In this document: one piece after another, positions 24,575-54,456 of the stretch | How the letters are laid out: the number at the start of each line of letters is the position of its first letter | Position numbering within the stretch: the first letter of the stretch is position 1 | From: an uncultured Arcobacteraceae bacterium | GTDB lineage: Bacteria; Campylobacterota; Campylobacteria; Campylobacterales; Arcobacteraceae | Assembly (NCBI GenBank): GCA_964022095.1 | Contig: CAXHZO010000001.1 | Location: 256,001 to 320,000, forward strand | DNA: 64,000 nt | Reading direction: 5' to 3' | Notes under the pieces: model-generated | Databases searched by the model: none | Told to the model about the DNA's origin: nothing | What the model saw: the letters and a program-made list of their open reading frames with translations, nothing else | Position numbers and translations under genes: made by a program

Positions 24575-24961
24575 TTAATTCTTTTTCTCGTCTTCTTCTT
24601 TAAACTGAAGATACTCTTCATCAGTCATAATTCTTGATTTTGTTACAAATTGATATCCTAAATCTATCTCTACTGAGAAAGAATTTCCAAATGCAGCGTT
24701 CTCTTTTTTAACCTCAATAGTTAAAAGTGAATGTTTAAAATATTCATATTTTTCTGGAGAAATGTAGAATTCACATCCACAAATTTCACCTAATTTTATA
24801 TGTCTGCTTGGTACATAAAAGTCAGTTGTAGCATAACACATAGGTGCAGTTCCATCACAGCAACCACCACTTTGAGAAAATACTAAATCACCATGTTCTT
24901 TTTTTAAAATTTCAATTACTTCGCAAGTTTCTTTTGTAGCTTGTACTCTTTTTAATGTCAT
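24575..24961 (-). CDS. DUF779 protein (usual partner of ExaC/AldB aldehyde dehydrogenases)
   Basis: QSGGCCDGTAPMCY motif; downstream of the aldehyde dehydrogenase. Confidence 0.9.
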   Translation of the reverse strand: MTLKRVQATKETCEVIEILKKEHGDLVFSQSGGCCDGTAPMCYATTDFYVPSRHIKLGEICGCEFYISPEKYEYFKHSLLTIEVKKENAAFGNSFSVEIDLGYQFVTKSRIMTDEEYLQFKEEDEKKN

Positions 24962-24978
24962 AATAAATCCTTTTTTTA

Positions 24979-25018
24979 GAAAAAAAATATAGAAGGAAAG
25001 GTAAACCTTCTATATTTT
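24979..25018 (-). terminator. Intrinsic terminator after the aldehyde dehydrogenase
   Basis: AAAATATAGAAGG...CCTTCTATATTTT stem; A-run on the plus strand is a U-tract on the minus strand. Confidence 0.7.
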
Positions 25019-25049
25019 ATATAAGATAGTGTTAAATCAAACTTATCTA

Positions 25050-26546
25050 TTAAAAGAATCCTAAAGCATTTTTGCTGTAAGAAGTTAAAATATTTTTTGT
25101 GTGTCTGTAAGAGTTTAACATCATCATGTGAGTTTCTCTACCGATACCTGATTTTTTGTATCCACCAAATGATGCATGTGATGGGTATAAGTGGTAACAG
25201 TTAACCCATACTCTACCTGCTTCAATTCCTCTTGACATTCTATGTAATTGGTGAGCGTCTCTTGACCATACACCAGAACCTAATCCGTACTCAGTATCAT
25301 TAGCAATTTCTAATGCTTCAGCTTCATCTTTGAAAGTTGTAAGAGCAAGTACTGGTCCAAAAATTTCTTCTTGGAAGATTCTCATTTTGTTGTGACCTTT
25401 GAAGATCGTTGGTTCAATATAGAATCCATTTGGATTAGTTTCAGATTCATAAACATTTCCACCAATTAGACACTCAGCACCTTCTTCTTTACCAATTTTG
25501 ATATATTCAGCAATTTTCTCTTTTTGGTTAAGAGAACATTGTGCACCCATCATATTTTCAGTATCTAGAGGGTTACCTAATTTAATAGCTTTAACTCTTT
25601 CTAATACTCTTGCTATGAATGGCTCATAAATTGACTCTTGGATTAATGCTCTTGATGGACAAGTACAAACTTCACCAGAGTTAAATGCGAATAATACTAA
25701 ACCTTCAATTGCTTTATCAAAGAACTCATCATCAGCGTCCATGATTGATTCGAAGAATACGTTTGGAGATTTACCACCTAATTCTAATGTAGAAGGGATA
25801 ATGTTCTCAGTAGCATATTGCATAATTAATTGACCAGTAGTTGTTTCACCTGTGAAACCTACTTTTTTAATGTCTGGGTGAGTTGATAAGAATTTACCAA
25901 TTTTTCCACCTGAACCATTAATAATGTTAACAGCACCTTTTGGTAATACATCTTGAATTGTTTCCATTAATAATAAAATTGACATTGGAGTAGCTGATGC
26001 TGGCTTCATAACAATTGTGTTACCTGCTGCTAATGCAGGAGCTAATTTCCATGCTGCCATTAATAATGGGAAGTTCCAAGGAATAATTTGAGCAACAACA
26101 CCATATGGCTCATAAACTTCTTGAGAAATTGTGTTCTCATCTAAATCTGCAACTGAACCAGACTCTCCTCTAATAACTGAAGCAAAGTATCTAAAGTGAT
26201 CTACAACTAAAGGAACGTCTGCATTTAAAGTTTCTCTAACAGTTTTACCGTTATCTAAAGTTTCAGCGATTGCTAAAGCTTCTAAGTTAGCTTCAATTGC
26301 GTCTGCAACTTTATTTAACATTGTACTTCTCTCAACAACTGAAGTATGTTTGTATGATTCGAAACAAGTCTTAGCAGCAGCAATTGCTAACTCTACATCT
26401 TCTTCATTTGATCTTGGAATTTGTGTTAAACCTTTCCCATCAACTGGAGAAATATTTTCAAAGTACTCACCACTCTTTGGAGCAACCCATTCACCACCGA
26501 TGAAGTTCTCATATTGAGCTTTGTATTCTGGTCTACTATAGATCAT
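25050..26546 (-). CDS. aldB: NAD-dependent aldehyde dehydrogenase (ExaC/AldB/PedI type)
   Basis: IIPWNFP, FTGET, LELGGKSP, GEVCTCPSR, EEIFGPV; begins YENFIGGEWVAP like ExaC. Confidence 0.93.
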   Translation of the reverse strand: MIYSRPEYKAQYENFIGGEWVAPKSGEYFENISPVDGKGLTQIPRSNEEDVELAIAAAKTCFESYKHTSVVERSTMLNKVADAIEANLEALAIAETLDNGKTVRETLNADVPLVVDHFRYFASVIRGESGSVADLDENTISQEVYEPYGVVAQIIPWNFPLLMAAWKLAPALAAGNTIVMKPASATPMSILLLMETIQDVLPKGAVNIINGSGGKIGKFLSTHPDIKKVGFTGETTTGQLIMQYATENIIPSTLELGGKSPNVFFESIMDADDEFFDKAIEGLVLFAFNSGEVCTCPSRALIQESIYEPFIARVLERVKAIKLGNPLDTENMMGAQCSLNQKEKIAEYIKIGKEEGAECLIGGNVYESETNPNGFYIEPTIFKGHNKMRIFQEEIFGPVLALTTFKDEAEALEIANDTEYGLGSGVWSRDAHQLHRMSRGIEAGRVWVNCYHLYPSHASFGGYKKSGIGRETHMMMLNSYRHTKNILTSYSKNALGFF

Positions 26547-26629: not shown

Positions 26630-26683
26630 ATTCTACAAGACAAATATAGCAAGAATTTAGCTTAAGTATAGCATAAATATAGC
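26630..26683 (-). promoter_or_regulatory. Four tandem GCTA boxes plus -10 TAGAAT for aldB
   Basis: Plus-strand TAGC at 26647, 26658, 26669 and 26680; ATTCTA at 26630-26635. Confidence 0.85.
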
Positions 26684-26775: not shown

Positions 26776-28692
26776 ATGAAGACATATAATTATACAATTA
26801 AGAACCAACCTTTAGATTTATTAATTGATTTTAATACATTTAAAGACGAAGAAAACATATTAATTCAAATTTTTTGTGGACAAACAAAAGATAAATTAAA
26901 AAAAATTGTTAGAGATTTTAAACAAAAACTTCCACAAGCATTTTTAATTGGTTCATCAACTGATGGAGAGATAAACAATAGTAACATCACTACATTAAAA
27001 ACTGTTATTTCTATCTCAGTTTTTCAAAGTACAACTATTAAATCTGCATATGCAACAGAAGAGGACTCATTTAAAAATGGAGTTAAATTAGCAAAAAAAA
27101 TATGTGAAGACAATTCAAAAGTATTGATAGCTTTTTGTAATCCTTATACTACCAATGGTGAAGAGTTTTTAAATGGTATTAGTTCAGTAGATAACGAAGT
27201 TATTGTTTGTGGAGGAATGGCTGGAGATAATGCAACATTTAAACAAACATTTATATGCTCTGATGAAACAGTATTAACTGATGGTGCTGTAGGTATTACA
27301 TTAAATTCAGATGAACTAAATGCCTGTAGTTCATATAACTTCAACTGGTCCCCTATTGGAATTAACCATGTTATTGAGAAAGTTAAAGGAAATAGAGTTT
27401 ATCAAATCTCAGGATTAAAGCCAATTGATTTTTATAAAAAATATCTAGGAGATTATGTTGCATTATCACTTCCTGCTACAGGTATTGAGTTTCCATTAAT
27501 TGTAAAGAAAAATGGTATACCTTTAGCAAGAGCAGTTATTAATAAACATGATGATGGTAGTTTAAGTTTTGCTGGTAATTTAAATGAAGGGGATATCGTA
27601 AAACTTGGATTTGGTAATGTAGAAATGATTATGAGTAATCCAATTCAGTCATTATTTAATAAATGTTCCATTGTAGATACAGAGTCATTCTTTATTTATT
27701 CATGTATGGCAAGAAGAAGATATATGCCAAGCTTAATTGATATAGAAATAAAACCTTTCTCAAAAGTTGCTACGACATCAGGTTTTTTTACTTATGGCGA
27801 GTTTTATCACAATAAAGAAAAAGTAAGCAATGAACTACTAAACCAAACTTTAACAGTACTTGCATTAAGTGAAAGAGAATCAGAACCTCATAAAGAAAAA
27901 AAAGTTCAAAAAAACGATACAAACTTAAGTGAATATGCAAGAAGTTTACAAGCCTTAACTCACTTGATTCAACAATCATCACAAGATTATAATGATCAAT
28001 CAAAAAAGTTGGAGCAAGGTCATAAATATGCTCAAAATTTAATAGAATCTCAAAAACAATTTTTAAAATATGCAATTCATGAAACGAATACTCCACTTTC
28101 AATTATTATGGGAAATATTGATATGTATGAAATTGAATATGGAAAAAATAAATACTTATCTAATATTGAAGTTGCAATGAAAAATCTATTTAGTATATAT
28201 GACGACTTAAGTTACTTGATTAAGAAAGACCAAGTAAATCAAGCAGTTCATGAAATAAACCTAGTAGACTTTTTACGAAGTAGAATAGATTTTTATACAC
28301 AAAATGCAATAAAATCAAAATCAACACTAAAATTTACTCATAATAAAGACGAAGTCAATTTAAAATTTAATGAAATTAAACTTCAAAGAATTGTTGATAA
28401 TAATTTAACAAATGCAATTAAGTATACATTACCAAATCAAGGCATTAAAGTAAAATTAAAATTACATCCAAATGGCGAGTGTGATTTGTCTTTTGAAAGT
28501 AAATCAGTTCAAATACTTGACCCTCAACAAATATTTGAGGAATACTATAGAGAAGAAGAAACTCAAGATGGATTTGGATTAGGATTAAATTTAGTAAAAA
28601 GAATATGTAGTGAAGAGAATGTTGGAATTAAACTAGAATCTGGTGAAAACTGGGCTTCATTTACTTATACATTTAAAGGAATAAAAATATGA
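26776..28692 (+). CDS. Cytoplasmic FIST (NosP-like) domain sensor histidine kinase
   Basis: FIST motifs GSSTDGEI, GGMAGD, YSCMARR and GFFTYGE; H-box HETNTPL, N-box NAIKY, G-box GFGLGL; no TM helix. Confidence 0.9.
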   Translation: MKTYNYTIKNQPLDLLIDFNTFKDEENILIQIFCGQTKDKLKKIVRDFKQKLPQAFLIGSSTDGEINNSNITTLKTVISISVFQSTTIKSAYATEEDSFKNGVKLAKKICEDNSKVLIAFCNPYTTNGEEFLNGISSVDNEVIVCGGMAGDNATFKQTFICSDETVLTDGAVGITLNSDELNACSSYNFNWSPIGINHVIEKVKGNRVYQISGLKPIDFYKKYLGDYVALSLPATGIEFPLIVKKNGIPLARAVINKHDDGSLSFAGNLNEGDIVKLGFGNVEMIMSNPIQSLFNKCSIVDTESFFIYSCMARRRYMPSLIDIEIKPFSKVATTSGFFTYGEFYHNKEKVSNELLNQTLTVLALSERESEPHKEKKVQKNDTNLSEYARSLQALTHLIQQSSQDYNDQSKKLEQGHKYAQNLIESQKQFLKYAIHETNTPLSIIMGNIDMYEIEYGKNKYLSNIEVAMKNLFSIYDDLSYLIKKDQVNQAVHEINLVDFLRSRIDFYTQNAIKSKSTLKFTHNKDEVNLKFNEIKLQRIVDNNLTNAIKYTLPNQGIKVKLKLHPNGECDLSFESKSVQILDPQQIFEEYYREEETQDGFGLGLNLVKRICSEENVGIKLESGENWASFTYTFKGIKI

Positions 28693-29348
28693 AAATTTTG
28701 CTTTTAGAAGATGACTCTATGTTAAATGAAATGATTGCAGAGTATTTAACTTCAACAGGTCACATTGTAACTACTGCAACTACAGGTAAACAGTGCCTAG
28801 AAATACTTGAGGATGGTAAGTTTGATTTGTTGATTTTAGATATTAACCTCCCTGATATTGATGGTTTTACAATACTAGAGAATCTACATGAACAAAAAAG
28901 AATGATTCCTACTATTTATATATCTGCATTAATTGATATTGAAGAAATTACAAGAGCTTTTGATATTGGATGCCATGATTATTTAAAAAAACCTTTTCAT
29001 TTAAGAGAATTAACTCTTAGAATAAATAAAATTCTAAAAACAAATATTGCTCCTCAAAAGCATAAAAGACTATCAAAATCATATAGTTTTGATGCAGAAT
29101 CAATGACATTATATTTTAATAATGAACCTCACATTTTACCAAAAAGACAACTTCAAATTATTGAACTACTTGCACATAATAGGAGTTTGGTAGTTAATTA
29201 TGATATGTTTAGAACATATGTATGGAATGATGACTATATAGATAATGCAACAATTAGAGCTGAAGTAAATAGGGTTAAAAAAGTACTAAAAGAAGATTTT
29301 ATAAAAAATATTAGAGGAAGTGGATATATGGTTGAAAGACCCAATTAA
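28689..29348 (+). CDS. OmpR/PhoB-family response regulator
   Basis: LLEDD, LDINLP and KPF receiver motifs; C-terminal winged helix ending NIRGSGY. Confidence 0.93.
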   Translation: MKILLLEDDSMLNEMIAEYLTSTGHIVTTATTGKQCLEILEDGKFDLLILDINLPDIDGFTILENLHEQKRMIPTIYISALIDIEEITRAFDIGCHDYLKKPFHLRELTLRINKILKTNIAPQKHKRLSKSYSFDAESMTLYFNNEPHILPKRQLQIIELLAHNRSLVVNYDMFRTYVWNDDYIDNATIRAEVNRVKKVLKEDFIKNIRGSGYMVERPN

Positions 29349-29398: not shown

Positions 29399-29473
29399 TT
29401 ATACGTGACATATATACATAGTAACTTCAAATCCAAATCTGTTATCTACGAATTCCGGAGTTTCCCATTTCAT
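29399..29473 (-). CDS. pqqA: PQQ precursor peptide, copy 1 (MKWETPEFVDNRFGFEVTMYICHV)
   Basis: Hand-translated 24-aa ORF with W..P and GFEVTMY (ExxxY); GGAGG RBS; own TGATATAAT at 29497-29505. Confidence 0.95.
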   Translation of the reverse strand: MKWETPEFVDNRFGFEVTMYICHV

Positions 29474-29525: not shown

Positions 29526-30401
29526 CTAAAATTTAATTGATACATAAAAACTTAAGTCAAACTCATTATCTTCACTTAAAAAATTATTCTTTCTGTAAAT
29601 TACATATGAGGGTTTGGTAGTAGTTTCAAACTCACTTTTAGGAAGCCACTCATGATAAACCCAGTGAATAAACTTTAGAATATCACCTTGTTTTCCTTCA
29701 ACATCAAATTTTGCATAAACACCATCTGATATTTTGAAATTAGGGAGCCTATCACTTTTTATATTGTTTTTTTCATCTGTAACAATACATGCAATATATT
29801 GACACTCTTCTAATGGAGTAATAGTAGGATTATCATGAAATAATGCAATTTGTTTATAGTTATGAATATCATTTGATAAAATCCAAGTTTGAAGTTTTTG
29901 CCAAGCTTGTTTTATATTTACATTATATCCTGGATTTCTAATATAAAAACTCTCAAAAGTTGGCATTTTAACAATTTCAGGAATTTTATCACTGAAATCT
30001 GCAGTTGAACGCATAGCAACATCTGATTGTTGTAAAATTTTATGGGAATAATCTTTATAACCACCATTTCTCCACTGTTTTGGTGTCATTTCAAATCTAT
30101 TTTTAAAAGTTTTTATAAATGAAGATTGAGAAGAGTATCCACAATCATTTGCAATTTCTGATATTGTGGAATATTTATTTGTTAAAAGTAAATTAGATGC
30201 TTTTTGCAATCTGATTGATTTTATACTTTCATAAATATTTTTTCCAAATGCTTCTTTAAAAATTCTATGCATATGAAATTTACTTACACCAAAATCAATA
30301 CTTAACTCTTCAATATCAATATTTGTATCAATATGAGTATAGATATAAAACATAATATCATTTGCTATTTTTGTTCTTTTTTGTAATGTTACTTTCTTCA
30401 T
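29526..30401 (-). CDS. AraC-family regulator with C-terminal GyrI-like ligand-binding domain
   Basis: SKFHMHRIFK and IANDCGYSSQSSFIKTFK double HTH; HDNPTITP...YIAC GyrI-like domain. Confidence 0.9.
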   Translation of the reverse strand: MKKVTLQKRTKIANDIMFYIYTHIDTNIDIEELSIDFGVSKFHMHRIFKEAFGKNIYESIKSIRLQKASNLLLTNKYSTISEIANDCGYSSQSSFIKTFKNRFEMTPKQWRNGGYKDYSHKILQQSDVAMRSTADFSDKIPEIVKMPTFESFYIRNPGYNVNIKQAWQKLQTWILSNDIHNYKQIALFHDNPTITPLEECQYIACIVTDEKNNIKSDRLPNFKISDGVYAKFDVEGKQGDILKFIHWVYHEWLPKSEFETTTKPSYVIYRKNNFLSEDNEFDLSFYVSIKF

Positions 30402-30528: not shown

Positions 30529-31191
30529 TTGGAAAAACAAAAAGACTTAAATCAACAATTGGATCTATTGTTAAAACAGTGTGAAACTTTAAACTTGAGA
30601 AAATTAAAGTTAGATACTTTACTTATCGTAGTAAATCATCTTTTAAGTGATTACAGTAAAATGCAATTACCAAAAGGTGAAGAAGATACTAAAGTAATCT
30701 TAAGCCATATTAGAAGTCTAAAAGAGTACCTGGACAATAATATAATTACCCCCGATACACTGTTTTACATTTTCCAAAATGAAAATAAGTCTTTATTACT
30801 TAAAAAGATTTCAACAAATATTCAACCAATGAGAGCTTATTATAAGTTTATAACGTCTATCTTTTCTTCCAAGCTAGAAAAAGGCTCTTATTGGATTCCT
30901 GAACTTCTTGCCTTTAGTTTGATTTATAATTATAAAAAAGAGTTTGGTAAATCTTTTGGATCATACACTTTTTTAGATAATTTTCCTGTTGAGAAAATAT
31001 TAGACATATATAATAAAAACAATATAGCAGTAAAAAAAGAACTAGCACTTAAAGATAATAAATCAACATGGGAAATAAAAACAAGTTTAGATCAAATGTA
31101 CGATATATCTGAATCAATGATTTATAAGTATCTAAACTATAATTTTAAAATAAATAAAAGAGTTTCTAAATCAAGAAAAAAAAGAAGATAG
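30529..31191 (+). CDS. Hypothetical protein with basic C-terminus
   Basis: 220-aa ORF with TTG start, AAGGG RBS and TACAAT upstream; no family recognised. Confidence 0.65.
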   Translation: MEKQKDLNQQLDLLLKQCETLNLRKLKLDTLLIVVNHLLSDYSKMQLPKGEEDTKVILSHIRSLKEYLDNNIITPDTLFYIFQNENKSLLLKKISTNIQPMRAYYKFITSIFSSKLEKGSYWIPELLAFSLIYNYKKEFGKSFGSYTFLDNFPVEKILDIYNKNNIAVKKELALKDNKSTWEIKTSLDQMYDISESMIYKYLNYNFKINKRVSKSRKKRR

Positions 31192-31212
31192 ATTAATAAT
31201 CTATCTTCTTTT
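31180..31212. terminator. Bidirectional terminator between the hypothetical gene and pqqE
   Basis: AAAAGAAGATAGATTA..TAATCTATCTTCTTTT inverted repeat. Confidence 0.75.
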
Positions 31213-32338
31213 ATATTTTGTTATTAATAAAAGCTAATGAATTCTTTTTATTTCTGTAAACTAATTCTTGATCAGAGAATTTAACACTCTCCTCAATTTT
31301 TCTATCAATAACACCATGATCAGGTGATTTTGAACAAACAGGATCAGTTGCATGCATATCACCAGTTAAAGCATATGCCTGACATCTACAACCACCAAAG
31401 TCTTTATCTCTTTCATCACATGTTCTACATGGTTCATTCATCCAAGAATCACCTCTGAAGTGATTAAATGATTCAGAGTCATACCAAATATCTTTGATTG
31501 AATAATCTTTTACATTTGGCCATTCAATTGGCATTGTATTAGCTGTATTACAAGGTAGCGCCATACCGTCTGGGTTAATTGTTAAGAACGTTGTACCTAA
31601 TCCATTCATACAAGCTTTTGGTCTATCAGCAAAATAATCGGGAACAACAAAGAAAGCTTTCATATCCTTCTTCTTTGATCTATATTTATCAGTAACTTCT
31701 TTAGCAATTGCTAATTGTTCTTTATTTGGTAAAAGAGCATTAATATTTTCTAATGCCCAACCATAATATTGAATATTTGCTATTTCTAAGTAATCTGCAT
31801 CTAAAACTTCATCTGCAAACTCAATAATTTCACCAACTTGATGAATATTTTGTCTAGTTATGCAAGTATTTACTATTAATTGCATGCCAGAATCTTTAAT
31901 TTCTTTTGCAATTTTTAACTTTTGTTTATATGCACTTTTATTATTAGTCACTAAAACCATTGTATTTTCATCGTGAGATTGAATACCAAGTTGTACTGTT
32001 TTTAATCCTGCATCTTTTAATTTTGTAATAATTCCTTCAGGAGCACCAACTCCTGAAGTAATTAAATTTGTATAAAAACCAAGTTCACTTGCACGTGCTA
32101 CAATTTCAACTATATCTTTATTTAATAAAGGCTCACCACCAGAGATTCCTAGCTGAACAGCACCAAGTTCTCTAACTTGTTCCATTACTCTAAACCAATC
32201 TTCTTTTGTCATGCCATCTTTTGTTTCAGCAAAATCTAGTTGATTATAACAGTAAGTACACTCTAAAGGACATTTATGTGTTAATTCAAGTAATACCCAT
32301 AATGGTGGTTTAATCTCTATTTTTTCATTAGTCGACAT
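31211..32338 (-). CDS. pqqE: PqqA peptide cyclase (radical SAM/SPASM)
   Basis: ELTHKCPLECTYCYN, SGGEPL, QYYGWA, DFGGCRCQA. Confidence 0.97.
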   Translation of the reverse strand: MSTNEKIEIKPPLWVLLELTHKCPLECTYCYNQLDFAETKDGMTKEDWFRVMEQVRELGAVQLGISGGEPLLNKDIVEIVARASELGFYTNLITSGVGAPEGIITKLKDAGLKTVQLGIQSHDENTMVLVTNNKSAYKQKLKIAKEIKDSGMQLIVNTCITRQNIHQVGEIIEFADEVLDADYLEIANIQYYGWALENINALLPNKEQLAIAKEVTDKYRSKKKDMKAFFVVPDYFADRPKACMNGLGTTFLTINPDGMALPCNTANTMPIEWPNVKDYSIKDIWYDSESFNHFRGDSWMNEPCRTCDERDKDFGGCRCQAYALTGDMHATDPVCSKSPDHGVIDRKIEESVKFSDQELVYRNKKNSLAFINNKI

Positions 32339-32597
32339 AATTTACCCACTTTCTTTCAAATGCTTCAGCAAAAAAAGATTCTACGTCTTTTTCTAATCCA
32401 GACATATCAAATTTTTTTTCTAATGTTTCTACAATTTGATTAAAATTTTTTGTTCCATCACATTGATTCATAATTTCACCAGCACTTTGGTTTAATTGAA
32501 CCATACCTTCAGGATATAACAACACAAAACAATCTTGCGCTTTTTCAAATTGCAGTTGAAAGTGATTATTCACTACAATTAATTTTTCTTTGTGCAT
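32328..32597 (-). CDS. pqqD: PqqA-binding chaperone (likely start ATG 32597)
   Basis: [21 protein letters not shown]. Confidence 0.95.
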
Positions 32598-45201: not shown

Positions 45202-45326
45202 AAAAAATCCTTTATTTTCTTTACTTCTTAATGAAACTTTAGCTAAAATACAAACTTAAGACAAGTACATACTAAAAAGAAATGTACTATATAAAAAGAT
45301 ACCTATGTGATTTTAAGGGGTTTACA

Positions 45327-45668: not shown

Positions 45669-45694
45669 TATAGCTTAATTAATTTTGGCTATTG

Positions 45695-45814: not shown

Positions 45815-45972
45815 AATTAGTTCCTTATAGTTATATTTTATTACTATACACAATAACATATATAACTTATTTTATTCTTAAGAAATCTATAGTAATTTAC
45901 TTATATTTTAATAAAAAACCTCCTAACTGTATATATACTGTACAATTAAGAGAATATTACAACCTTTTTTTA

Positions 45973-48481
45973 CTACTCTCTAAATTTTTTTTCACCAACA
46001 TCTTCTAATATTTGTTTAGCAAGTTTATTTGAATTAGCTGCTATATCATGAGTTTGTGAAGCAATTTCTGCATTTTCTTGAGTTTGCTTATCTAAGCTAT
46101 AAACTGCACTATTAATTTGCTCTATTCCAGATAATTGCTCTTTACTTGATTTATCAACAAAATCAATTAAATGTAAAGTCTCTTCAATATTGTTATTAAG
46201 TTTTTTATATCCTTCAATCATTTCAGAAGCAATACCTTTACCTTCATTTGCTTTGAAGCTTGCATCTTCAACTAATTTTTTTATCTCATCAGCTGCTTGG
46301 GCACTTCTACTTGCTAAGTTTCTAACTTCTTGAGCAACAACAGCAAATCCTTTTCCAGCTTCACCTGCAGTTGCTGCTTCAACGGCTGCATTAAGAGATA
46401 AAATATTTGTTTGAAATGCAATTTGATCAATCACTTCAATTGCTTCACTAATAGCAGTTACTTTTTCGTTTATTTCATCCATAGAAGAGTTTGTTTTATT
46501 AGCTAATACTTCCCCACTTGTAGAAGACTCATTTACTTTTTTAGAATAGTTAGTCATTTTATAAATATTCTCTGAACTATTTCTAATATTTGATGTAATC
46601 TCTTCAATTGATGAAGATGTCTCCTCTAAAGATGCTGCTGCTTGAGTAGAACTAAGCTTTAATTTATTTACATTGTCAAGTAAAGTATCTGATTGTCTAT
46701 CAATAGTTAATCCTCTTTGTTTACTTTTATTTAGCATTGTAGAGATTGAATCACCTAAATAATTTACTCCTTGTGCTAAATTTAATAAATCTTCTTTTAA
46801 TCCATTTGTATCTACTTTTTCTAAATAATCATAATTTGAATATTTATCTAAAATATTTAAAACCTTATTTATATTAGATTCTAAATTCCCTGCCATATTA
46901 TTAAGTACATCTTGTAATTGCATTAAAGAAGGATTAGATACATTTTGATTTAATCTTTTTGACAAATAACCCTTTTCAAAATCACCTAACACTGCTATTG
47001 TTTCATCAATTAGTTTTCTATCTTCATCTATTGATTTTTTAGTAATTTGAACATTCTCATTTAAAATACTTGCCATTTGACCTATTTCATCATCATTAAC
47101 AACTTCTAATAATACAGCATCATCTGATTTATGATTTAAATATGAAAAGAAAGAGTCTAATCCATCTTTTAATTTTTCAATTGGATTTATTATTAGTTTG
47201 CTTATTAAACTAATAGAGATAATCAAAAATATTGTGATACTTACAATTGAAGCAATTAATACAAATCTTCTAAGCTCATATGCTGTTTGAAAAGCTTCAT
47301 CTTCATCAATTTCAGACACTAATACCCATTTTGTTTGATCAAAAATATTTATTACCTCAAAAGCACTTAATACACTAATCCCTCTATAATCATCAATTAT
47401 CCAATTAGCTTCATTTATATTTTTTTCAAAGGCTGCTTTTGTTGTATCTGTTTTTACTTCCCAAATACCAATAGTTGAATTTAACTCTTTTACAATGTCA
47501 TCATTTATGTCATTTAAAAATCTAGAGTTGTTTCTCATTTTATAATCACTACCAATTAAATAAGCCTCACCACTTTTTCCAAAACCTGATTCTTCATAAT
47601 CTCCATTAAAACTCATAATGTCATTGATTTTATCAACTGGCATTTGAAAAATTAAAACACCTTGTTTCTTATCATTTATAAAGATAGGTGTTGCAATAAA
47701 GGAAGCAGCTGAATTATAACTAGGCTCATAGGGAGCAAAATCTTCAAAAGCAATTTCATTTTTATTTAACTGTAATGCTTTTTTATAAACTTTTCCAATA
47801 CCTGTTTTTGAATATACACCATTAATTAAATTTGTACCAAAATCTTTTTCTTTGAAGTCTGTGTAAATTAAGTTACCCTTTAAATCTACCATGAAAATAT
47901 CATATAAACTATAATTAATTAAGAATTCATTGAAAGTGCTATGGTATAACTTATGTGCCTCCATATATTTAGACTTATATTTTTCATTATAAACTAAATT
48001 GTTTTTTTCTCCCAATTTTTCTTTATTATCAGTAATAAAAATATATTGAGCAATTAAAGAGTTATTATTAATTGGAAGATAGGTATCCATATCTTTTCTT
48101 GAATCACTATTTGGGACTTTATAATTTACCAAATCTAAATAGTTTGTCTTAAAATCTTTTGAAATTTCTTCTTCAATAAAATCAATATCTAAATCAATTT
48201 CATTAGATAAATTATGAAAACCTTCTTCAAAATCTACAAAAGCATCTTTTGTAGTTTTACTTTGAGATAAAGATAAAAGAAGTGATTGTAATGTTCCAAA
48301 ATAAGATTGAATTTCATTCTTTTTAGTAGTTTTGATAGCTTGTAGCTTATTCATTTCTGATTTTTCTAAAGATTTCATTGACATATCTATAGATAGATAT
48401 GAGATAATAGAACCTAGAAAAATCAAACTAAATGCGATTAAAGTAATTAACTTAAATCTAATTGATAAGTTTTTTTTTCAT
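45973..48481 (-). pseudogene. Methyl-accepting chemotaxis protein (Cache-type periplasmic domain), frameshifted in an A9 run just after the start codon
   Basis: [17 protein letters not shown] signalling domain. ATG 48481 with AAAGGG RBS is one base out of frame; the main frame has TGA at 48478-48480. Confidence 0.8.
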
Positions 48482-48552: not shown

Positions 48553-48951
48553 CTAGTACTTACCAAACTCTTTATATGTTTTATCTTCAAAAATTATAAA
48601 GACTGTTTTTGGATCATTATCATTCTCATAAGCAGGTAATGCTAAACCAATTGAGTCCTTAATTGGTTTTGCTAAAAAATCTTTTATAGCTTTTGAAGGA
48701 ACATTACCTTCAAATACATAATCATTTAAAAAAGAGGTATTACATGATTGTATTTCAAAAGGAACACCAACATCTTTTTTTATTGCTTTTACGCTTCTTA
48801 AAGTTATGATCTCTACATCTTTTGCAACTAAATTCATCTCTTCATACCAAGAAGGAGGACAAGTACTACTTAGAGGTTTAAAAACTTGCATTTTCCCTTC
48901 ACTTGCAAACAATGCAACTACTAAACTAGCTAAAATAAATATTTTTTTCAT
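48553..48951 (-). CDS. Secreted DUF411/CopG-like protein with eroded metal ligands
   Basis: K..GVP...SCNT...YVFEGNVP..AI...L...IGLALP follows the DUF411 pattern. Confidence 0.7.
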   Translation of the reverse strand: MKKIFILASLVVALFASEGKMQVFKPLSSTCPPSWYEEMNLVAKDVEIITLRSVKAIKKDVGVPFEIQSCNTSFLNDYVFEGNVPSKAIKDFLAKPIKDSIGLALPAYENDNDPKTVFIIFEDKTYKEFGKY

Positions 48952-49646
48952 ATTTCACCTTTTAATATATTTGGATATTCATCAAAAAGATTGTTTTTAA
49001 TCTCATCAATTCTTTTTAAATCAAAACTTTGTTCATTTGGGTTGTTAAACTCTAAAATTACCTTTGCAGGATTTTTTGAAAAGAAGAATATTCTATTTGA
49101 AAATAAAATAGCCTCACTTATATCATGAGTTACAAGAATAACTATTGGATTGAATTTTTTGCAAAGTTCTAAAAAGTCTTTTTTAAGCTCTTGAGAAGTT
49201 GGAAAATCTAAAGAAGTAAAAGGCTCATCAAGTAAAATTAATTTCGGTTGATTTATAAATGCTCTTACAAATGCAACTCTTCTTTTCATGCCCCCTGATA
49301 ATACTTTTGGATATTCATCTAAAAAATCTTCTAAATCGATTAATCTTAGTAATTCTATTATATCTTCAATACTTTTTGATTGAGAAACTAATAAAAGATT
49401 CTCTTTAATTGTTAGCCAAGGAACTAATCTATCATCTTGAAAAACAAAAGAAATCTCATCAAAAGGTATATCAATATGTCCACAATAGTCATTATCTAAG
49501 TTTGATAAAATATTTAAAAAAGTACTTTTACCACACCCTGATGGACCAATTATTGATATAAATTCATTCTCTTTTACATTCATATTTATATCTTTTAATA
49601 TGGTTTTAGTGTTGTATTCTTTTGAGCTTATATTTATATCAATCAT
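48948..49646 (-). CDS. NitT/TauT-type ABC transporter ATP-binding protein (likely start ATG 49646)
   Basis: GPSGCGKST, LSGGMKRR, LLDEPF, VTHD. Confidence 0.92.
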   Translation of the reverse strand: MIDINISSKEYNTKTILKDINMNVKENEFISIIGPSGCGKSTFLNILSNLDNDYCGHIDIPFDEISFVFQDDRLVPWLTIKENLLLVSQSKSIEDIIELLRLIDLEDFLDEYPKVLSGGMKRRVAFVRAFINQPKLILLDEPFTSLDFPTSQELKKDFLELCKKFNPIVILVTHDISEAILFSNRIFFFSKNPAKVILEFNNPNEQSFDLKRIDEIKNNLFDEYPNILKGEI

Positions 49647-49647
49647 A

Positions 49648-50379
49648 CTATTTCCATGCATTTATTTTATTTTCTATTGGCTTTAATATATAGTTCTCAA
49701 TTAATAATATAACAATAATAAAAGCTAAAGAATAAGCTAAAATAGATGTAATATTAAAAAATTGGAAAAACATTGATATTTTAAATCCAATCCCATCACT
49801 TCTACCAAGTAACTCTACAACTAAAACAATCTTCCAAATTAAAGATAAGGATAATCTTGTTGAAGCCATTATATATGGATAGATTTGAGGTAAAAAAACT
49901 TTAAAGAAAGTTTCTTTTTTTGATACTTTATATACTTGTGCTAGTTTTAAATACTTTTGCTCAACTGCTCTAGTGCCTTCTCTAATATTAACTACAACAA
50001 TTGGTACTTTATTTAAAATAACAGCCAATAATGCTGCAAAATCTGTTAATCCAAACCAAATATAGCAAATAACAATCGTAACTAATGCAGGTATATTTAA
50101 ACTAAGAATTAATATAAAATCAAATATATCATCTACTTTTTTTGATAAACCCATTGCTATACCAATAAATATTCCAATAAGCATTGTAATAAAAAATGTT
50201 ACAAATACTCTATAAAGAGTAATTCCTAAGTGATGAAACAGTTCTCCATCCCCCATATGTCTAATTAAATCATAAAAGATATCAACAACACTTGGGAATA
50301 CTGAAGATTCTATAGTAACAGCAATAGCTTGCCAAAGTATTACAAAAATAAATATTGATATTAGTTTAGTTTGATTCAA
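49648..50379 (-). CDS. NitT/TauT-type ABC transporter permease
   Basis: Multiple TM helices; NIPALV, LIWKIVLVVELLGRSDGIG. Confidence 0.9.
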   Translation of the reverse strand: MNQTKLISIFIFVILWQAIAVTIESSVFPSVVDIFYDLIRHMGDGELFHHLGITLYRVFVTFFITMLIGIFIGIAMGLSKKVDDIFDFILILSLNIPALVTIVICYIWFGLTDFAALLAVILNKVPIVVVNIREGTRAVEQKYLKLAQVYKVSKKETFFKVFLPQIYPYIMASTRLSLSLIWKIVLVVELLGRSDGIGFKISMFFQFFNITSILAYSLAFIIVILLIENYILKPIENKINAWK

Positions 50380-50393
50380 AATATAATTCCCAT

Positions 50394-51350
50394 TTATTTT
50401 TCAAAGTCCCAGAAAGTTTTTGTTTGTAAATAATTACTATTTTTAACTAATTTTCTACCACCCTGCTTTAGAAGAATCTCAAATATTTTTGAAGAATCTT
50501 TAATGTTTTTCTTTGTAAAATCTTTAATTACACCTGCTTTATAACCATCTATTAATGCATTAAAAGTTTTTTCATCTTTCACGTTCATTAATGGTTTAAT
50601 TCTCTCCCACTCTTTTTTATTATTTATTAAAATATCTTTTGCTTCATGTGTAGCTTTTATAAAAGAGTTATATAATTTTTTATTTTCTAAAGCAATATCT
50701 CTTCTAAAAGTCCATCCAACAGTTGAAATATCTTCTTTTATTCCAAAAGAAGCAAATACATCTTTAATTCTTATAAATTCTTTCGCCCCTTTTGCTTTAA
50801 CTTTTGCATTAAAATGCCAAAAATTAATTGCTCCATCTAATGAGCCATCTAATACTTTTTTCATTAAAATTGGAGGAGCAGCAAAAACTGGCTTAATTAT
50901 ATTTTTCAAATCTTTACCATATTTTAACTTTGAATAAGCCCTTAAGATTAGCCATGTTTTATCAACAGGACCTCCAGCAATACCTATACTTTGTCCTTCC
51001 AAATCTAAAATAGTTTTTGCATTATTATTTTTGTTTATATACATAGTGCCATTAGCTTTTGAATAAGGATAAAAAGTAAAATCTTTACCACTCGCTCTTT
51101 GAGTATTAACCCAAATCCAATCAGTAACAAAAATATCTACACTTTTAGATTGAAAGGCAACAGAGGTGGCATTTTTTGATGCTAATTTAACAATATCTAA
51201 ATCAAAGCCATATTTTTTATCTAATTTATGATGTTTTATTACATTTAGTTCCCAATTTACAGTACCAAAGGCAAGAACTCCAACTTTTAATTTTTCACTT
51301 GCACTAAGATTCAAAATTAATAAAAAGATTAAAAAATTCACTTTTTTCAT
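50394..51350 (-). CDS. NMT1/TauA-type ABC substrate-binding protein, PqqT-like (putative PQQ binding)
   Basis: FGTVNWEL..IKHH.LD, DWIWV..QR and AGGPVDKTW; a family I recognise from xoxF/PQQ clusters. The PqqT assignment is from recall. Confidence 0.65.
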   Translation of the reverse strand: MKKVNFLIFLLILNLSASEKLKVGVLAFGTVNWELNVIKHHKLDKKYGFDLDIVKLASKNATSVAFQSKSVDIFVTDWIWVNTQRASGKDFTFYPYSKANGTMYINKNNNAKTILDLEGQSIGIAGGPVDKTWLILRAYSKLKYGKDLKNIIKPVFAAPPILMKKVLDGSLDGAINFWHFNAKVKAKGAKEFIRIKDVFASFGIKEDISTVGWTFRRDIALENKKLYNSFIKATHEAKDILINNKKEWERIKPLMNVKDEKTFNALIDGYKAGVIKDFTKKNIKDSSKIFEILLKQGGRKLVKNSNYLQTKTFWDFEK

Positions 51351-51379: not shown

Positions 51380-51411
51380 ATTGTATATGAGTTTTATAGC
51401 ATAAATTTAGC
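51380..51411 (-). promoter_or_regulatory. GCTA-N7-GCTA box plus -10 TACAAT for the PqqT-like ABC operon
   Basis: TAGC at 51397 and 51408; ATTGTA at 51380-51385. Confidence 0.85.
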
Positions 51412-51433
51412 ATTTGATGATTCTTTTTTAAAT

Positions 51434-51465
51434 GCTATAATGAGGCTATAAAAAGAGTCTATAAT
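51434..51465 (+). promoter_or_regulatory. GCTA-N7-GCTA box plus -10 TATAAT for the pedF operon
   Basis: GCTA at 51434 and 51445; TATAAT at 51460-51465. Confidence 0.85.
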
Positions 51466-51500: not shown

Positions 51501-51932
51501 ATGAAAAATATTCAAAAAATTGGATTAGCTACACTATTTTCTGCAGTAGTAGCATTTGGACATGGAAGTGTTACACCTCAAGCTATTGATTTAGCTGCTG
51601 TTGAAAAAGCTGGTGTAAAATTACTTGGTGAAGAATTATTAGATGAAAATCCATATAAAACAACTGATGATAAAGTAATTGAATTTGGTAAAGTACAATA
51701 TGCTGAAAACTGTGCTAGATGTCATGGATTAGATGCTGTTTCTGGTGGAATTGCTCCTGATTTAAGATACTTAGAAGATGGTATGGATGGTGATGAATGG
51801 TTCACTGATAGATTCATGAATGGTGCAGTTAGAAACGGTAACGTTTATATGCCTCCATTTGAAGGTATCTTACCACAAGAAGCAATGTGGGCAATTAGAA
51901 CTTACGTTCAAGCTTTACCAAAAGAAGACTAA
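51501..51932 (+). CDS. pedF: Cytochrome c550 (PedF/ExaB)
   Basis: HGSVTPQAID, CARCHG, SGGIAPDLR, YMPPF. Confidence 0.93.
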   Translation: MKNIQKIGLATLFSAVVAFGHGSVTPQAIDLAAVEKAGVKLLGEELLDENPYKTTDDKVIEFGKVQYAENCARCHGLDAVSGGIAPDLRYLEDGMDGDEWFTDRFMNGAVRNGNVYMPPFEGILPQEAMWAIRTYVQALPKED

Positions 51933-51942: not shown

Positions 51943-52815
51943 ATGATTAATATTTTTAAATCGTTTTTTTTAGTAATTTTATTTACACTTTTTGCACATG
52001 CAAGAAGTATAGAAGAAATCCAAGAGAGTGGAGAAGTTTATATAGCAGTATATGAAAACTTCCCTCCTTACTCTTTTACTAAAAATGGTAAATTAGTAGG
52101 TGTTGATGTAGATTTAGGTAATGAGATTGCTAAGTCCCTAAATGTTAAACCTATTTTTTATCAGACAGGTACAGATGAGACTTTGTCAGACGATTTAAGA
52201 AATAATCTTTGGAAAGGTAATCTAGTTCATAAGCACAAAGCGGACATCATGTTCAGAGTTCCTTATGACTATGATTACTTAAGATTAAAAGATGACTATA
52301 CTGGTGAATTACAAAATGAAATGGTTACTATTAAAGGACCATATCAAAGTGAAAAATGGGTTATAGCAACTCATAAAAAAATTATCCCAGAATTTAAAAA
52401 TCTTGCTATGTTTGCATATCATACAATTGGTGTAGAGTTAGACACTCTTCCTGATAATCATTTATCTGGTTTCGCAAGAGGTTTAATTAGAGAAAAAGTT
52501 AAGCACTATTTTAGATATGAAGATGCAGTAAAAGATTTTTTAGATGGAAAACTTGATGCCATTGCAGGTTTAAGATCACAACTTGAGTATTATTTAGATT
52601 ATAACAATAATAAAGATAAGTACTACATGAGTGATAGTATTCCTCAAATGAAATCACATTGGGATTTAGCAGTAGCTGTTGAAAGCCTTTATAGACCGTT
52701 AGGTTATCACATCGCTGGCCTAATTTCTAAAAAATATAATAATGGTGAAATTAAGAAAATCTTTGAAAAATATGGAGTAAATTATCTTCCTCCAATTTCT
52801 AGAACGGCTCAATAA
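51943..52815 (+). CDS. Periplasmic solute-binding family 3 protein associated with quinoproteins (PedG/MxaJ-like)
   Basis: AVYENFPPYS, GVDVDLG, DETLSDDLRNNLWKG, ADIMFRVPYD. Confidence 0.8.
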   Translation: MINIFKSFFLVILFTLFAHARSIEEIQESGEVYIAVYENFPPYSFTKNGKLVGVDVDLGNEIAKSLNVKPIFYQTGTDETLSDDLRNNLWKGNLVHKHKADIMFRVPYDYDYLRLKDDYTGELQNEMVTIKGPYQSEKWVIATHKKIIPEFKNLAMFAYHTIGVELDTLPDNHLSGFARGLIREKVKHYFRYEDAVKDFLDGKLDAIAGLRSQLEYYLDYNNNKDKYYMSDSIPQMKSHWDLAVAVESLYRPLGYHIAGLISKKYNNGEIKKIFEKYGVNYLPPISRTAQ

Positions 52816-52831
52816 TAAAAAAGGAATTATC

Positions 52832-53569
52832 ATGAAACATATATTCTTCTTCATTATGGTGTTTTTAGTTAGTACCGCAAACGCTAAAAACCCAATCATA
52901 TCTCCAACATTTGACGACCTAGTAAAATCCATGATCAATGGAGAGGAATATATCTTTGATGATAAAAATATCATAATGAAAGTACCTAAGTTTGCAGATA
53001 ACCCTGTACAAGTACCCATTTATGTAAATGCAACAAAAATCAAAGATGCCCAAAGAATGATTATCTTTGCAGATTTAAACCCAATTGCAGAAATTGTTGA
53101 TATGCCAACTACAAACTTATTGCCTATTTTTTCTTCTAATATAAAAGTAGCTCAAGAAACTCCACTTAGAGCATTAATAAAAGATAGTTCTGGCCTTTGG
53201 CATGTAGGAAGTATTAATATTAATAGTAATGGTGGAGGTTGTGACATCTCTTCTCAGGCTTCACAAGATAGTAAGTTTGCAGAATTTTTAGGCCAAACAA
53301 AAGGTCAAACTTTTGATAAGAAAGATGGTGTAACAAGAATCAAAGCCTCAGTTTTTCATCCAATGGAAACAGGTTTAATTTTTGGTAATTCAAAATTTTA
53401 TGTTCATACAGTAGAAATTAAAGATGGGAATAAATTAATTGACAAAATTAAATTATCTCCTGCAATTAGTGAAAACCCTAGACTTATTTTTGAAACAAAA
53501 AGTAAATTTAAAAACTTAAATATTCTTTTCAGAGATAATGATGCAAATGAATTTGAATTAGAGTTATAA
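52832..53569 (+). CDS. Quinoprotein dehydrogenase-associated fused SoxYZ-like carrier
   Basis: ADLNPI, GGGC, HPMETGL, ISENP motifs. Confidence 0.88.
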   Translation: MKHIFFFIMVFLVSTANAKNPIISPTFDDLVKSMINGEEYIFDDKNIIMKVPKFADNPVQVPIYVNATKIKDAQRMIIFADLNPIAEIVDMPTTNLLPIFSSNIKVAQETPLRALIKDSSGLWHVGSININSNGGGCDISSQASQDSKFAEFLGQTKGQTFDKKDGVTRIKASVFHPMETGLIFGNSKFYVHTVEIKDGNKLIDKIKLSPAISENPRLIFETKSKFKNLNILFRDNDANEFELEL

Positions 53570-54456
53570 TGAAAAAGCTAATTTTACTAGTTTGTAGTCT
53601 TAGTTATTTATTTGCATATGACTTTAATTTAAAGCCTATAAAATTATCAGAAAACAGCTACTATTTTGAAGGTAAAAAAGAGTACTTTTCACCTTCAAAT
53701 GGTGGTGACATTTCAAATAGTTCATTTATAATTGCAAAGAACTCTGTAATCTTAATTGATACAGGAACTACTGTCGCTTATGCTGAAGCACTTAAAAAAG
53801 AAATAAAAAAAATCACTGATAAACCTATTAAATACATTATAAATACACATCATCACCCTGATCACTTTTTAGGTAACTATGCCTTTAAAGATGTTGAAAT
53901 TTATGCAACTGACTTTACAAAAAACGATATAGAATCTCATGGTGAACTATATGTAAGTAATATTGTAAACCTAGTAGGAGAAACTGCTTATACAACAAGA
54001 TCAAAAGCTCCAAATAAAATACTAAAAGAAGGTAAGTTATCACTAGATGGATATGATCTTGAGGTATTCTTTTTTGATGGGCATACAAAAAGTGATACTG
54101 TAATTTTAGATAAAAATACAAAAACACTTTATACTTCTGATTTAATTTTTAATCAAAGAGCCCTAGCAACTCCACATGCTAATATTCCACTATGGATAGA
54201 ATCTCTTAAAAAACTAAAAGAGTTTAATTTTGATACTTTAGTGCCAGGTCATGGGAAGGTTACACACTCAAAGAATGTAATTGATGAAAATATAAGATAT
54301 TTAGAGTTTTTAGATACTACATTAAAAGAAGCAAATTCAAATGGTTTAGATGTATTTGAAGTTCTTTTACAAGATGTTCCTAAAGAGTTTAGTGACTATT
54401 CAATGTTTCAAGAAGAGTATGAAAGAAGTATTATAAATTTATTTAAAAAATACTAA
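53569..54456 (+). CDS. Quinoprotein relay system zinc metallohydrolase (SoxH-like MBL fold)
   Basis: NGGDISN, THHHPDHFLGN, GHT, VPGHG. Confidence 0.88.
   Translation: MKKLILLVCSLSYLFAYDFNLKPIKLSENSYYFEGKKEYFSPSNGGDISNSSFIIAKNSVILIDTGTTVAYAEALKKEIKKITDKPIKYIINTHHHPDHFLGNYAFKDVEIYATDFTKNDIESHGELYVSNIVNLVGETAYTTRSKAPNKILKEGKLSLDGYDLEVFFFDGHTKSDTVILDKNTKTLYTSDLIFNQRALATPHANIPLWIESLKKLKEFNFDTLVPGHGKVTHSKNVIDENIRYLEFLDTTLKEANSNGLDVFEVLLQDVPKEFSDYSMFQEEYERSIINLFKKY

Follow-up and report, generated by a model that had tools for sequence, protein, structure and literature searches.

Can a member of the Campylobacterota oxidize alcohols with a rare-earth enzyme and hold a calcium enzyme as an alternative? 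The question is raised by a gene cluster at positions 24575-54456 of a 64,000-nucleotide stretch (the window, from whose first nucleotide all coordinates are counted) of the genome of an uncultured Arcobacteraceae bacterium (GenBank assembly GCA_964022095.1, contig CAXHZO010000001.1, positions 256,001 to 320,000). A first-pass annotation, made from the sequence alone, had pointed to two quinoprotein dehydrogenases there, and we followed it up computationally. Taken as a whole, the region is best explained, with high probability, as encoding periplasmic oxidation of ethanol and similar alcohols, in which the enzyme PedH would act with a lanthanide and otherwise the enzyme PedE with calcium. The chemistry itself is already known; what is new is the host phylum, the regulation and the dynamics of the gene cassettes.

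Two PQQ alcohol dehydrogenases and their predicted metals

Both dehydrogenase open reading frames (ORFs) are open and full length, and they are chromosomal neighbors within one cluster of ped genes and genes for pyrroloquinoline quinone (PQQ). The gene pedH (34468-36231, minus strand) encodes a PedH-type PQQ alcohol dehydrogenase (ADH) of 587 amino acids, predicted to be lanthanide-dependent, and pedE (38824-40710, minus strand) an ExaA/PedE-type PQQ alcohol dehydrogenase of 628 amino acids, predicted to be calcium-dependent. Both exceeded the TIGR03075 cut-off of 480 (769 bits for PedH, 722 bits for PedE) and were the sole two matches when the genome was searched with this family. As the first-pass annotation had described, both have vicinal cysteines, one with the motif WDFDG (exactly 35236-35250, minus strand) and one with WDFSG (exactly 39646-39660, minus strand), and both genes are intact. 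The residues of PedH that align to the structure 6ZCW are C141-C142, E209, N287, D329, the extra aspartate D331 and R352, and its active site is identical to that of 6ZCW without a gap over 18 protein letters. The corresponding residues of PedE are the vicinal C134-C135, E215, N302, D352 and S354, and its active site matches that of ExaA 1FLG over TPNDAWDFSGNNELV.

Among solved structures, the best match of PedH was 6ZCW/6ZCV with 890 bits, followed by ExaA 1FLG (638), XoxF (344-364) and MxaF (about 300), and the best match of PedE was 1FLG with 1021 bits, as against 657 for PedH 6ZCW. According to the accessible parts of the sources, 6ZCW is PedH (PMC11996626) and 1FLG is ExaA of Pseudomonas aeruginosa (PMC5487730). 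The closest type is therefore not XoxF/MxaF, given 890 and 1021 bits to ethanol dehydrogenases versus at most 364 to XoxF/MxaF. These methanol dehydrogenases have the same fold and follow the same aspartate rule but match much more weakly, and the match to them is not evidence of methylotrophy. The rule itself, that the extra aspartate parts lanthanide enzymes from calcium enzymes with serine, had been taken as established in the first-pass annotation and is indeed published (PMC5487730; bioRxiv 2020.02.25.964783). In the accessible text of these papers, PedE carries Ser and PedH carries Asp at the extra-ligand site, PedH was active with lanthanum (PMC5487730), and the D319S substitution in ExaF leads to loss of function (bioRxiv 2020.02.25.964783).

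The phylogeny suggested as a check by the first-pass annotation was computed from 120 rows and then enlarged to 158, in a quick IQ-TREE run with Shimodaira-Hasegawa-like approximate likelihood ratio (SH-aLRT) supports only. The enlarged tree added 19 mostly Rhodobacteraceae-type loci and 19 named PedE homologues and left out nine named Arcobacteraceae loci as probable duplicates; in both trees, orthologues from Pseudomonas and Methylorubrum loci stand in for the assayed proteins, and there are no XoxF rows, XoxF being excluded by score. The WDFDG enzyme clustered with PedH proteins of Gammaproteobacteria, the WDFSG enzyme with those of the ExaA/PedE type. The 49 full-length PedH proteins of the family formed one clade (SH-aLRT 100) inside a group with 21 gammaproteobacterial PedH (98), and the nine family PedE proteins formed one clade (SH-aLRT 100) that is sister to the 29 proteobacterial PedE sampled. 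The WDFSG enzyme shares a clade with P. aeruginosa ExaA (P0101). The WDFDG enzyme is therefore, on alignment and tree, a PedH orthologue of the PedH/ExaF type 2b and likely lanthanide-dependent, and the WDFSG enzyme is an ExaA/PedE orthologue and likely calcium-dependent. It weighs against this assignment of metals that the metal is read from one residue and the phylogeny. An early entry of the genes into the Arcobacteraceae from Proteobacteria fits the trees, and a single entry would suffice. The PedH donor was likely gammaproteobacterial. Because family PedE is sister to all 29 sampled, its donor is placed no more narrowly than in the Proteobacteria. This PedH also has a lipobox-like N-terminus. 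A loose regular expression flags such a signal in 27 of the family's 49 PedH proteins, and also in 3 of its 9 PedE proteins and in 3 of 52 PedH from Proteobacteria.

The cluster as a probable alcohol-oxidation pathway

The genes named in the first-pass annotation (pqqABCDE, pedA1/A2/B/C, pedD, pedF, a PedG-like gene and an aldehyde dehydrogenase gene) were all found, and of the Pseudomonas ped gene set PedF, PedD, PedG, PedA1A2BC, SoxYZ/SoxH-like proteins, the aldehyde dehydrogenase and the pqq genes are present here. Beyond the first-pass list we found a PqqT-type ATP-binding cassette (ABC) system (48948-51350), two extra pqqA copies, the SoxYZ/SoxH-like pair, a DUF302-like protein, and an OmpR-type regulator paired with a FIST kinase. 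PQQ would be made by PqqABCDE, encoded on the minus strand by pqqB (33327-34244, TIGR02108), pqqC (32566-33312, TIGR02111), pqqD (32328-32612, NF002535/TIGR03859) and pqqE (31211-32338, TIGR02109), all above their cut-offs, and by three pqqA genes: copy 1, a Glu-X3-Tyr peptide (34357-34431), copy 2 behind pedD (37960-38034) and copy 3 (29399-29473). Lanthanide import is likely the task of PedA1A2BC. The genes for this system are pedA1 for the ABC binding protein (42542-43750, plus strand; TIGR03863, 414 bits with a cut-off of 413.6; the true start is likely 42602), pedA2 for a YVTN beta-propeller (41005-41973, minus; TIGR03866 above cut-off), pedB for the ABC ATPase (37095-37826, minus; TIGR03864, 280 bits, below the cut-off of 302) and pedC for the permease (36309-37091, minus; TIGR03861 above cut-off). 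The tie between PedA1A2BC and lanthanide uptake drawn in the first-pass annotation agrees with the accessible literature on P. putida, where the system is required at nanomolar lanthanum.

Binding and recovery of PQQ are likely the role of the PqqT-type ABC system. Its periplasmic protein (50394-51350, minus) matches PDB entry 9B1U with an E-value of 6e-54; 9B1U is PqqT, which the accessible part of its report describes as upregulated by lanthanum. The equivalents of L37, T41, G112, D141 and K142 of 9B1U are conserved, the changes are Y188 to F, N143 to T and I222 to V, and the PQQ-contact lysine is conserved in all 26 family copies caught by a regular expression (51 genomes had a match). On this alignment the protein likely binds PQQ. 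Its ATPase and permease partners (48948-50379, minus) were assigned from NCBIfam, Pfam and neighborhoods. PedH loading is likely aided by the PedG/XoxJ-like periplasmic protein (51943-52815, plus; 32% identity over 266 amino acids to a Pseudomonas ped-locus ORF). Once alcohol had been oxidized by PedH with lanthanide or PedE with calcium, electrons would pass through the single PedF, a cytochrome c550 (51501-51932, plus; TIGR04494 above cut-off; one copy in the genome), toward a cbb3 oxidase, and acetaldehyde would be converted to acetate by the ExaC/PedI-type dehydrogenase encoded by exaC (25050-26546, minus; NF050026, 828 bits, below the cut-off of 900), which adjoins a gene for a DUF779 protein (24575-24961, minus; Pfam PF05610). 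The remaining members are pedD for a pentapeptide-repeat protein (38058-38759, minus; Pfam), the DUF302-like gene (43747-44205, plus; Atlas features 0.89, structural TM score 0.79), a SoxYZ-like fusion of the PP_2677 type (52832-53569, plus; TIGR04557, 136 bits, below the cut-off of 140) and a SoxH-like zinc metallohydrolase of the PP_2678 type (53569-54456, plus; TIGR04558 above cut-off). The best matches of PedB, the SoxYZ fusion and ExaC thus fall slightly under their own curated NCBIfam cut-offs.

The genome encodes ccoN of the cbb3 oxidase, the acetate kinase gene ackA and two ActP permeases. The genome gave no AcsA match above the cut-off, no malate synthase and no true isocitrate lyase, its sole match to the isocitrate lyase family being a methylisocitrate lyase. 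Because acetate kinase is present and these three were not found, alcohol probably serves more for energy than as the only source of carbon. The lack of these three also favors the alternative that the cluster serves mainly aldehyde or alcohol detoxification or energy supplementation, with no growth on ethanol as sole carbon. Acetate kinase and the two ActP permeases speak against it, as do the promoter repeat described below, which precedes the first actP operon, and the codon bias of exaC and pedH, which is typical of major catabolic genes. In addition, ferredoxin-linked carboxylation could replace the glyoxylate shunt. We regard this alternative as a serious but less probable one than the catabolic pathway set out above. 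The searches for acetate routes covered acetate kinase, AcsA, malate synthase and isocitrate lyase.

When the 1983 genes of the genome were ranked by codon bias, exaC was second, pedH ninth and pedE 142nd, with a pattern resembling EF-Tu, EF-G and ribosomal genes; the ranking used a fixed reference set of which only some members were identified. This result suggests that the cell makes much ExaC and PedH and less PedE. Alien codon usage of pedH/exaC was considered and rejected, since their deviation (98th/100th percentile) points to the EF-Tu/ribosomal pattern. In run X2, which is recorded as RNA from a marine source, pedH and pedE are covered by contigs of about 99% identity, and exaC, pedA2 and pedF-pedG by further ones. 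These contigs show that sequence of a close strain was present; they say nothing about transcription or rank, and parts left uncovered carry no weight. The salt-marsh runs gave small shares only and added little.

The GC content of the cluster (28.7%) is close to that of its flanks (28.3% and 26.8%) and of the genome (27.9%), and GC content at synonymous third positions (GC3s) was 0.07-0.18 across the 24 cluster ORFs of at least 150 amino acids, with a genome mean of 0.114. These values bear out the first impression of a cluster as AT-rich as its surroundings. A recent transfer into this genome was rejected because of the host-like composition, the same layout in the same-genus genome G156 and the monophyletic family clade. 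A lanthanide TonB receptor was sought as well: the cluster has none, and none of the seven TonB receptors elsewhere in the genome was assigned. The ORFs behind pedH in the Colwellia and Aestuariibacter loci encode a radical-SAM protein and a 4Fe-4S protein and gave no TonB assignment either.

The cluster of P. putida KT2440 has the same pair of PedE and PedH with Ser and Asp ligands, a shared cytochrome c550, the transporter, PedD, PedG, SoxYZ/SoxH-like genes and an aldehyde dehydrogenase. It differs in belonging to another phylum and in gene order, as the first-pass annotation had remarked, and its regulators PedS2/PedR2 were not found here. Unlike P. putida KT2440, the present cluster has the FIST-kinase/OmpR-type pair with an 11-bp repeat, an in-cluster PqqT-type ABC system, three pqqA genes and the lipobox-like PedH N-terminus. 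Methylorubrum extorquens AM1 shares an Asp-type ethanol dehydrogenase, ExaF (the present PedH is 69% identical to that of Methylorubrum locus L108), and PqqT, whose counterpart here has the PQQ-contact lysine. However, family PedH groups with Gammaproteobacteria and not with Methylobacteriaceae, this genome has no XoxF/MxaF, and a simple regular expression found no lanmodulin-like EF-hand in it. The ExaABC system of P. aeruginosa shares the PedE-type enzyme (1021 bits), cytochrome c550 and ExaC, and its layout is resembled by five relatives with PedE only, in which pedE is divergent from its own cytochrome gene. In the present genome, by contrast, pedE lies inside the lanthanide operon between pedA2 and pedB, and one PedF is shared with PedH.

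A promoter repeat and the possible control of the two enzymes

A direct repeat of the form GCTA(A/T)A-N5-GCTA(T/C), with an 11-bp period, is shared by the upstream regions of the cluster. Nine of its 15 matches in the genome lie in the cluster, which makes up 1.2% of the genome, and another precedes the actP operon. On the minus strand, four tandem GCTA repeats form a predicted regulator box upstream of exaC (26646-26683), and single boxes stand upstream of pedH (36298-36313), pedE (40797-40812) and pedB (37867-37882), the last recurring in 3 of 48 family pedB upstream regions. Pairs of divergent boxes occupy, on both strands, the gap between pedA1 and the gene for a small exported protein (42504-42559) and the gap between pqqT and pedF (51396-51449). 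Across relatives the repeat was upstream of exaC in 40 of 40 cases, pedE in 8 of 8, pedF in 39 of 39, pqqT in 35 of 35, pedH in 36 of 50 (strict pattern) and pedA2 in 28 of 44. It was found upstream of none of the kinase (0/41), pqqE (0/51), pepA (0/35) and exbB (0/21) genes. For pedA1 the count was 0 of 41, which is likely an artefact of a too-early start codon (checked in this genome only). A scan for sigma-70 sites gave fewer than in shuffled sequence (86 versus 118) and carried no information.

Next to exaC lie genes for a FIST-domain histidine kinase, the likely sensor (26776-28692, plus; Pfam FIST, FIST_C, HisKA and HATPase_c), and an OmpR/PhoB-type response regulator (28689-29348, plus; Response_reg and Trans_reg_C). 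Regulators of the OmpR/PhoB class bind to repeats whose period is near 11 bp, and the regulator of this pair likely reads the repeat, as judged from proximity and repeat geometry. The block of exaC, DUF779, kinase and regulator is spread more widely than the ped island: the kinase is present in 99 of 184 family genomes, and the three genomes without the island that we examined kept the block and the repeat, with no ped or pqq genes beside it. The imported genes would have been wired to a resident FIST-kinase/OmpR-type pair through the repeat. Several points weigh against this reading. The pairing of regulator and repeat is inferred only, and the repeat pattern was derived from these same upstream regions, which makes its enrichment in the cluster partly circular. 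A spacer of 6 also gives 15 matches genome-wide, although neither it nor the other spacers give any in the cluster, and the strict pattern is missing before 14 of the 50 pedH genes. Since many of the 99 genomes with the kinase have no ped genes, its signal need not be alcohol.

The known switch between the two enzymes is PedS2-PedR2, and P. putida as a rule regulates pedE and pedH inversely, according to the accessible text of PMC12997753. The HisKA_3/HAMP kinase and the LuxR regulator of Pseudomonas locus L110, which we named pedS2/pedR2 by position and domains, had no tblastn match (E≤1e-5) in the present genome. A HisKA_3 domain (PF07730) was likewise found nowhere in this genome, which is 99.99% complete (the control matched in 7 of 14). 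P. putida-like switching of the calcium enzyme can therefore not be assumed. The first-pass annotation had proposed a calcium alternative, and of this the enzyme stands, in the ExaA/PedE clade, and the familiar switching does not carry over. Because the repeat precedes both pedH and pedE and PedS2/PedR2 were not found, we lean, by a modest degree, toward joint induction of pedH and pedE by alcohol or acetate, with metal supply deciding which enzyme is active.

The alternative is a true rare-earth switch built from other parts, with pedE repressed under lanthanide; such parts might be a FIST kinase that detects lanthanide after its import, the AraC/GyrI-like regulator, or a signal from apo-PedH. 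Inverse regulation in P. putida lends it weight, pedE has its own promoter region, and the AraC/GyrI gene occurs in all four genomes that carry both enzymes, whereas the maps of PedE-only genomes do not show it inside the cluster. However, this gene also occurs in many PedH-only genomes, the same repeat precedes pedE in dual and PedE-only genomes alike, and the genome has neither a PedS2/PedR2 homologue nor a HisKA_3 kinase. Such a switch thus seems to us possible but less probable than joint induction.

Other copies of the repeat were also recorded. Two precede, at about 9210-9247, a gene for a 311-amino-acid protein (8225-9160, minus) that matches no Pfam or NCBIfam family and is a candidate regulon member; others precede a tandem pair of small-protein/actP operons (G000:C1:169890; L293:1451-5686) and a thioredoxin-reductase-like gene (G000:C9:56511; L294:1059-2054). 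In one relative, a stop lies within the FIST kinase (G046:C1:946075).

Distribution, probable exchange and helpers of the metal module

We searched 184 Arcobacteraceae genomes with the PedH query (E≤1e-30) and found a PQQ alcohol dehydrogenase in 58 of them, or in 53 of the 152 high-quality genomes. PedH alone was present in 49 carriers, PedE alone in five (G017, G043, G048, G091, G108) and both in four (G000, G156, G168, G170). PedH alone is thus the rule, and the dual state is the exception. Five of the 49 PedH-only loci run off a contig end or are interrupted (G023, G142, G143, G171 and G167, which has an internal stop); in G167:C15 both pedH and rpoB are interrupted, so the breaks are probably assembly errors. 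Among the neighborhoods fetched for the 57 relatives, 50 showed a readable Asp motif and 8 a readable Ser motif, and 2 showed neither. The closest named relatives among the at least 80 loci listed belong to Arcobacter, Aliarcobacter and Poseidonibacter. A survey of the phylum, called for by the first-pass annotation, gave no such enzyme outside the family: none of 377 Campylobacterota genomes outside it matched, in an even sample of 401 genomes of the phylum that is a sample and not proof of absence.

To follow the two enzymes through the family, we used an RpoBC tree of 52 carriers and an outgroup, leaving out G142 and five carriers without an rpoB match (including the PedE-only G108). The presence of PedE changes at least seven times on this tree, and PedE-only genomes stand at very short distances beside PedH-only ones (G048 beside G046, G043 beside G034, G017 beside G019). 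Between G048 and G046/G051, identity was 94-100% in the flank from exaC to pqqB and 89-96% in soxH and pepA, but 47-57% in the shared genes inside the module; the control pair G046/G051 had 89-98% identity throughout. G043 and G034 showed the same dip at soxYZ (61%), with the control G034/G022 also lowered inside (62-91%). In G168 the best matches of the whole inner module are in other genera, and in G170 pedE-pedD lies at a different site. In the present genome and G156, pedE-pedD-pqqA is inserted between pedA2 and pedB. Approximately unbiased (AU) tests on soxYZ rejected the expected genus-level groups (p 0.0004, 0.0007 and 0.047), which the concatenated flank tree retains. The shared inner genes that are non-vertical are soxYZ and the DUF302-like gene, exactly in the PedE-only genomes, and the flanks are vertical.

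We therefore consider it fairly probable that the inner module has been swapped in place between lanthanide and calcium versions across the family. Against this, the AU tests concern one gene of 246 columns with long branches, the inner and flank trees differ in their taxon sets, and the groups were picked after the pairwise identities had been viewed. If instead the dual state were ancestral to the family, the PedH-only and PedE-only states would have arisen purely by differential loss, with no lateral exchange. This would suit the fact that the PedE proteins of the family form a single old clade, with 80-94% identity to the query, sister to the 29 proteobacterial PedE and with sub-groups that partly track genera (a g1 pair and a g2 pair), and clean loss of the total island is common. 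We nevertheless consider it unlikely in view of the repeated changes of PedE, the PedE-only genomes beside PedH-only sisters, the inner genes that are non-vertical in just those genomes between vertical flanks, and the arrangements in G168 and G170. The two family PedH subtypes (mostly WDFDGVNE versus WD(Y/F)DG(M/I)(A/S)E) require six changes when placed on the RpoBC tree, which likewise points to exchange or else to hidden paralogy. The absence of mobility genes and the long residence proposed in the first-pass annotation hold for the cluster family-wide, and no transposase or integrase family was among the matches listed (the best five per protein) for the 61 window ORFs; they do not extend to the inner metal module, which was apparently exchanged between genera at the same site.

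The helper genes follow the metal type. Whole-genome searches of the 184 genomes found the PqqT-like protein in 51 of 53 PedH genomes and PedA1 in 49 of 53, and each in none of the five PedE-only genomes and none of the 126 without the enzyme; the PedH genomes lacking a match are incomplete or fragmented assemblies. All but one of the 58 carriers have pqqC (57), and the other 126 genomes all lack it. PedA2 and PedG were not found in any of the five PedE-only genomes, in searches run without a known-positive family genome. In the fetched neighborhoods, some of which are short, pedD accompanied PedE at all nine of its loci and was missing from all 49 that are PedH-only. Among the named PedE homologues, one natural fusion (P0098, 788 amino acids) joins PedE to PedD. 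These counts show that PedA1, PedA2, PedG and the PqqT-ABC system go with PedH, and PedD with PedE. That the WDFDG enzyme also runs on calcium, or is a relic without genuine lanthanide use, is very improbable: metal heterogeneity inside ADH type 2b, noted in the accessible part of a published survey (PMC11996626), would allow it, but every PedH gene of the family that could be read (51) has the extra Asp, dedicated helpers co-vary with PedH, and identity to the assayed PedH is high over the entire active site.

Joining these lines, we offer, as a tentative reading that falls somewhat short of probable, that about a quarter of Arcobacteraceae species depend on lanthanide for periplasmic alcohol oxidation, that metal preference is toggled by an exchange of cassettes in place, at the site between pqqB and soxH, and that the rare dual genomes run both enzymes from one host-native regulon without the known rare-earth switch. 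As part of the same tentative reading, the lanthanide cassette would comprise pedH, pedA1A2, pqqT-ABC, pedG and pedF, and the calcium cassette pedE, pedD and its own pedF. Several observations temper this partition. The genes pedB/pedC are still present in three of five PedE-only loci and so are not strictly lanthanide-linked. The SoxYZ/SoxH-like pair is kept in four of five (the fifth being a short contig), which counts against a lanthanide-only role. The PedE-only genomes may share one cassette and are then not five independent tests, and the co-occurrence counts come from related genomes that are not independent.

None of the papers listed in our literature searches describes a PQQ or lanthanide alcohol dehydrogenase from Arcobacteraceae or any other Campylobacterota, in agreement with the first-pass annotation, which knew of no characterized case in the phylum; a large published tree may nevertheless already include a sequence from Arcobacter. 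The accessible supplement text of PMC11996626, whose Fig. 2A spans 14 phyla, has no match for Arcobacter or Campylobacter. Li et al. 2024 list unnamed 'methanol oxidation' genes for Arcobacteraceae, and the accessible text mentions neither PQQ, xox, mxa nor lanthanide (PMC11265409); these genes may be the present enzyme, which would perhaps explain that label. If our reading is true, lanthanide-dependent metabolism extends to the Campylobacterota, and cultured Arcobacteraceae become test organisms. Since 49 of the 58 carriers lack a calcium enzyme to fall back on, media without lanthanides may have concealed their use of alcohol. Close sister species whose sole difference lies in the metal module are a natural experiment that names the lanthanide- and calcium-specific helpers, and the partition bears on questions about PedD, PedG and SoxYZ-like genes raised in the accessible part of PMC12997753. 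A dual system without PedS2/PedR2, in turn, tests whether any switch is needed.

Some further features lie in or near the cluster. An AraC/GyrI-like regulator gene found in some genera only (29526-30401, minus; Pfam and neighborhoods of relatives) is accompanied by a gene for a hypothetical protein that matched no family and travels with it by co-occurrence (30529-31191, plus). The small exported protein (42025-42453, minus), which has no Pfam, NCBIfam or PDB match, is possibly cupredoxin-like: its Atlas neighbors are mostly unnamed, and one cluster is 16% Cupredoxin_1, which is a lead only. An insert outside the cluster core (44227-48426, both strands) encodes an acuI-like oxidoreductase, an hxlR-type protein and a methyl-accepting chemotaxis protein, as a set present only in this genus among the fetched loci; for the 817-amino-acid chemoreceptor, alcohol sensing is conceivable. 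A DUF411-like exported protein (48553-48951, minus; Pfam) follows it. Besides the fusion P0098, the protein P0096 (767 amino acids) also has a C-terminal extension, one without a Pfam match. Among relatives, some genus-g2 genomes have a second, divergent pqqC (G004:C22:111654, G019:C61:20, G025:C79:8045), near which pqqE-like genes lie in G025 and G004. Delta-class carbonic anhydrases are known mostly from algae, and one is encoded beside the cluster at 22728-23585 (minus; Pfam CA_like, E 4e-85), unmatched in the fetched neighborhoods of relatives.

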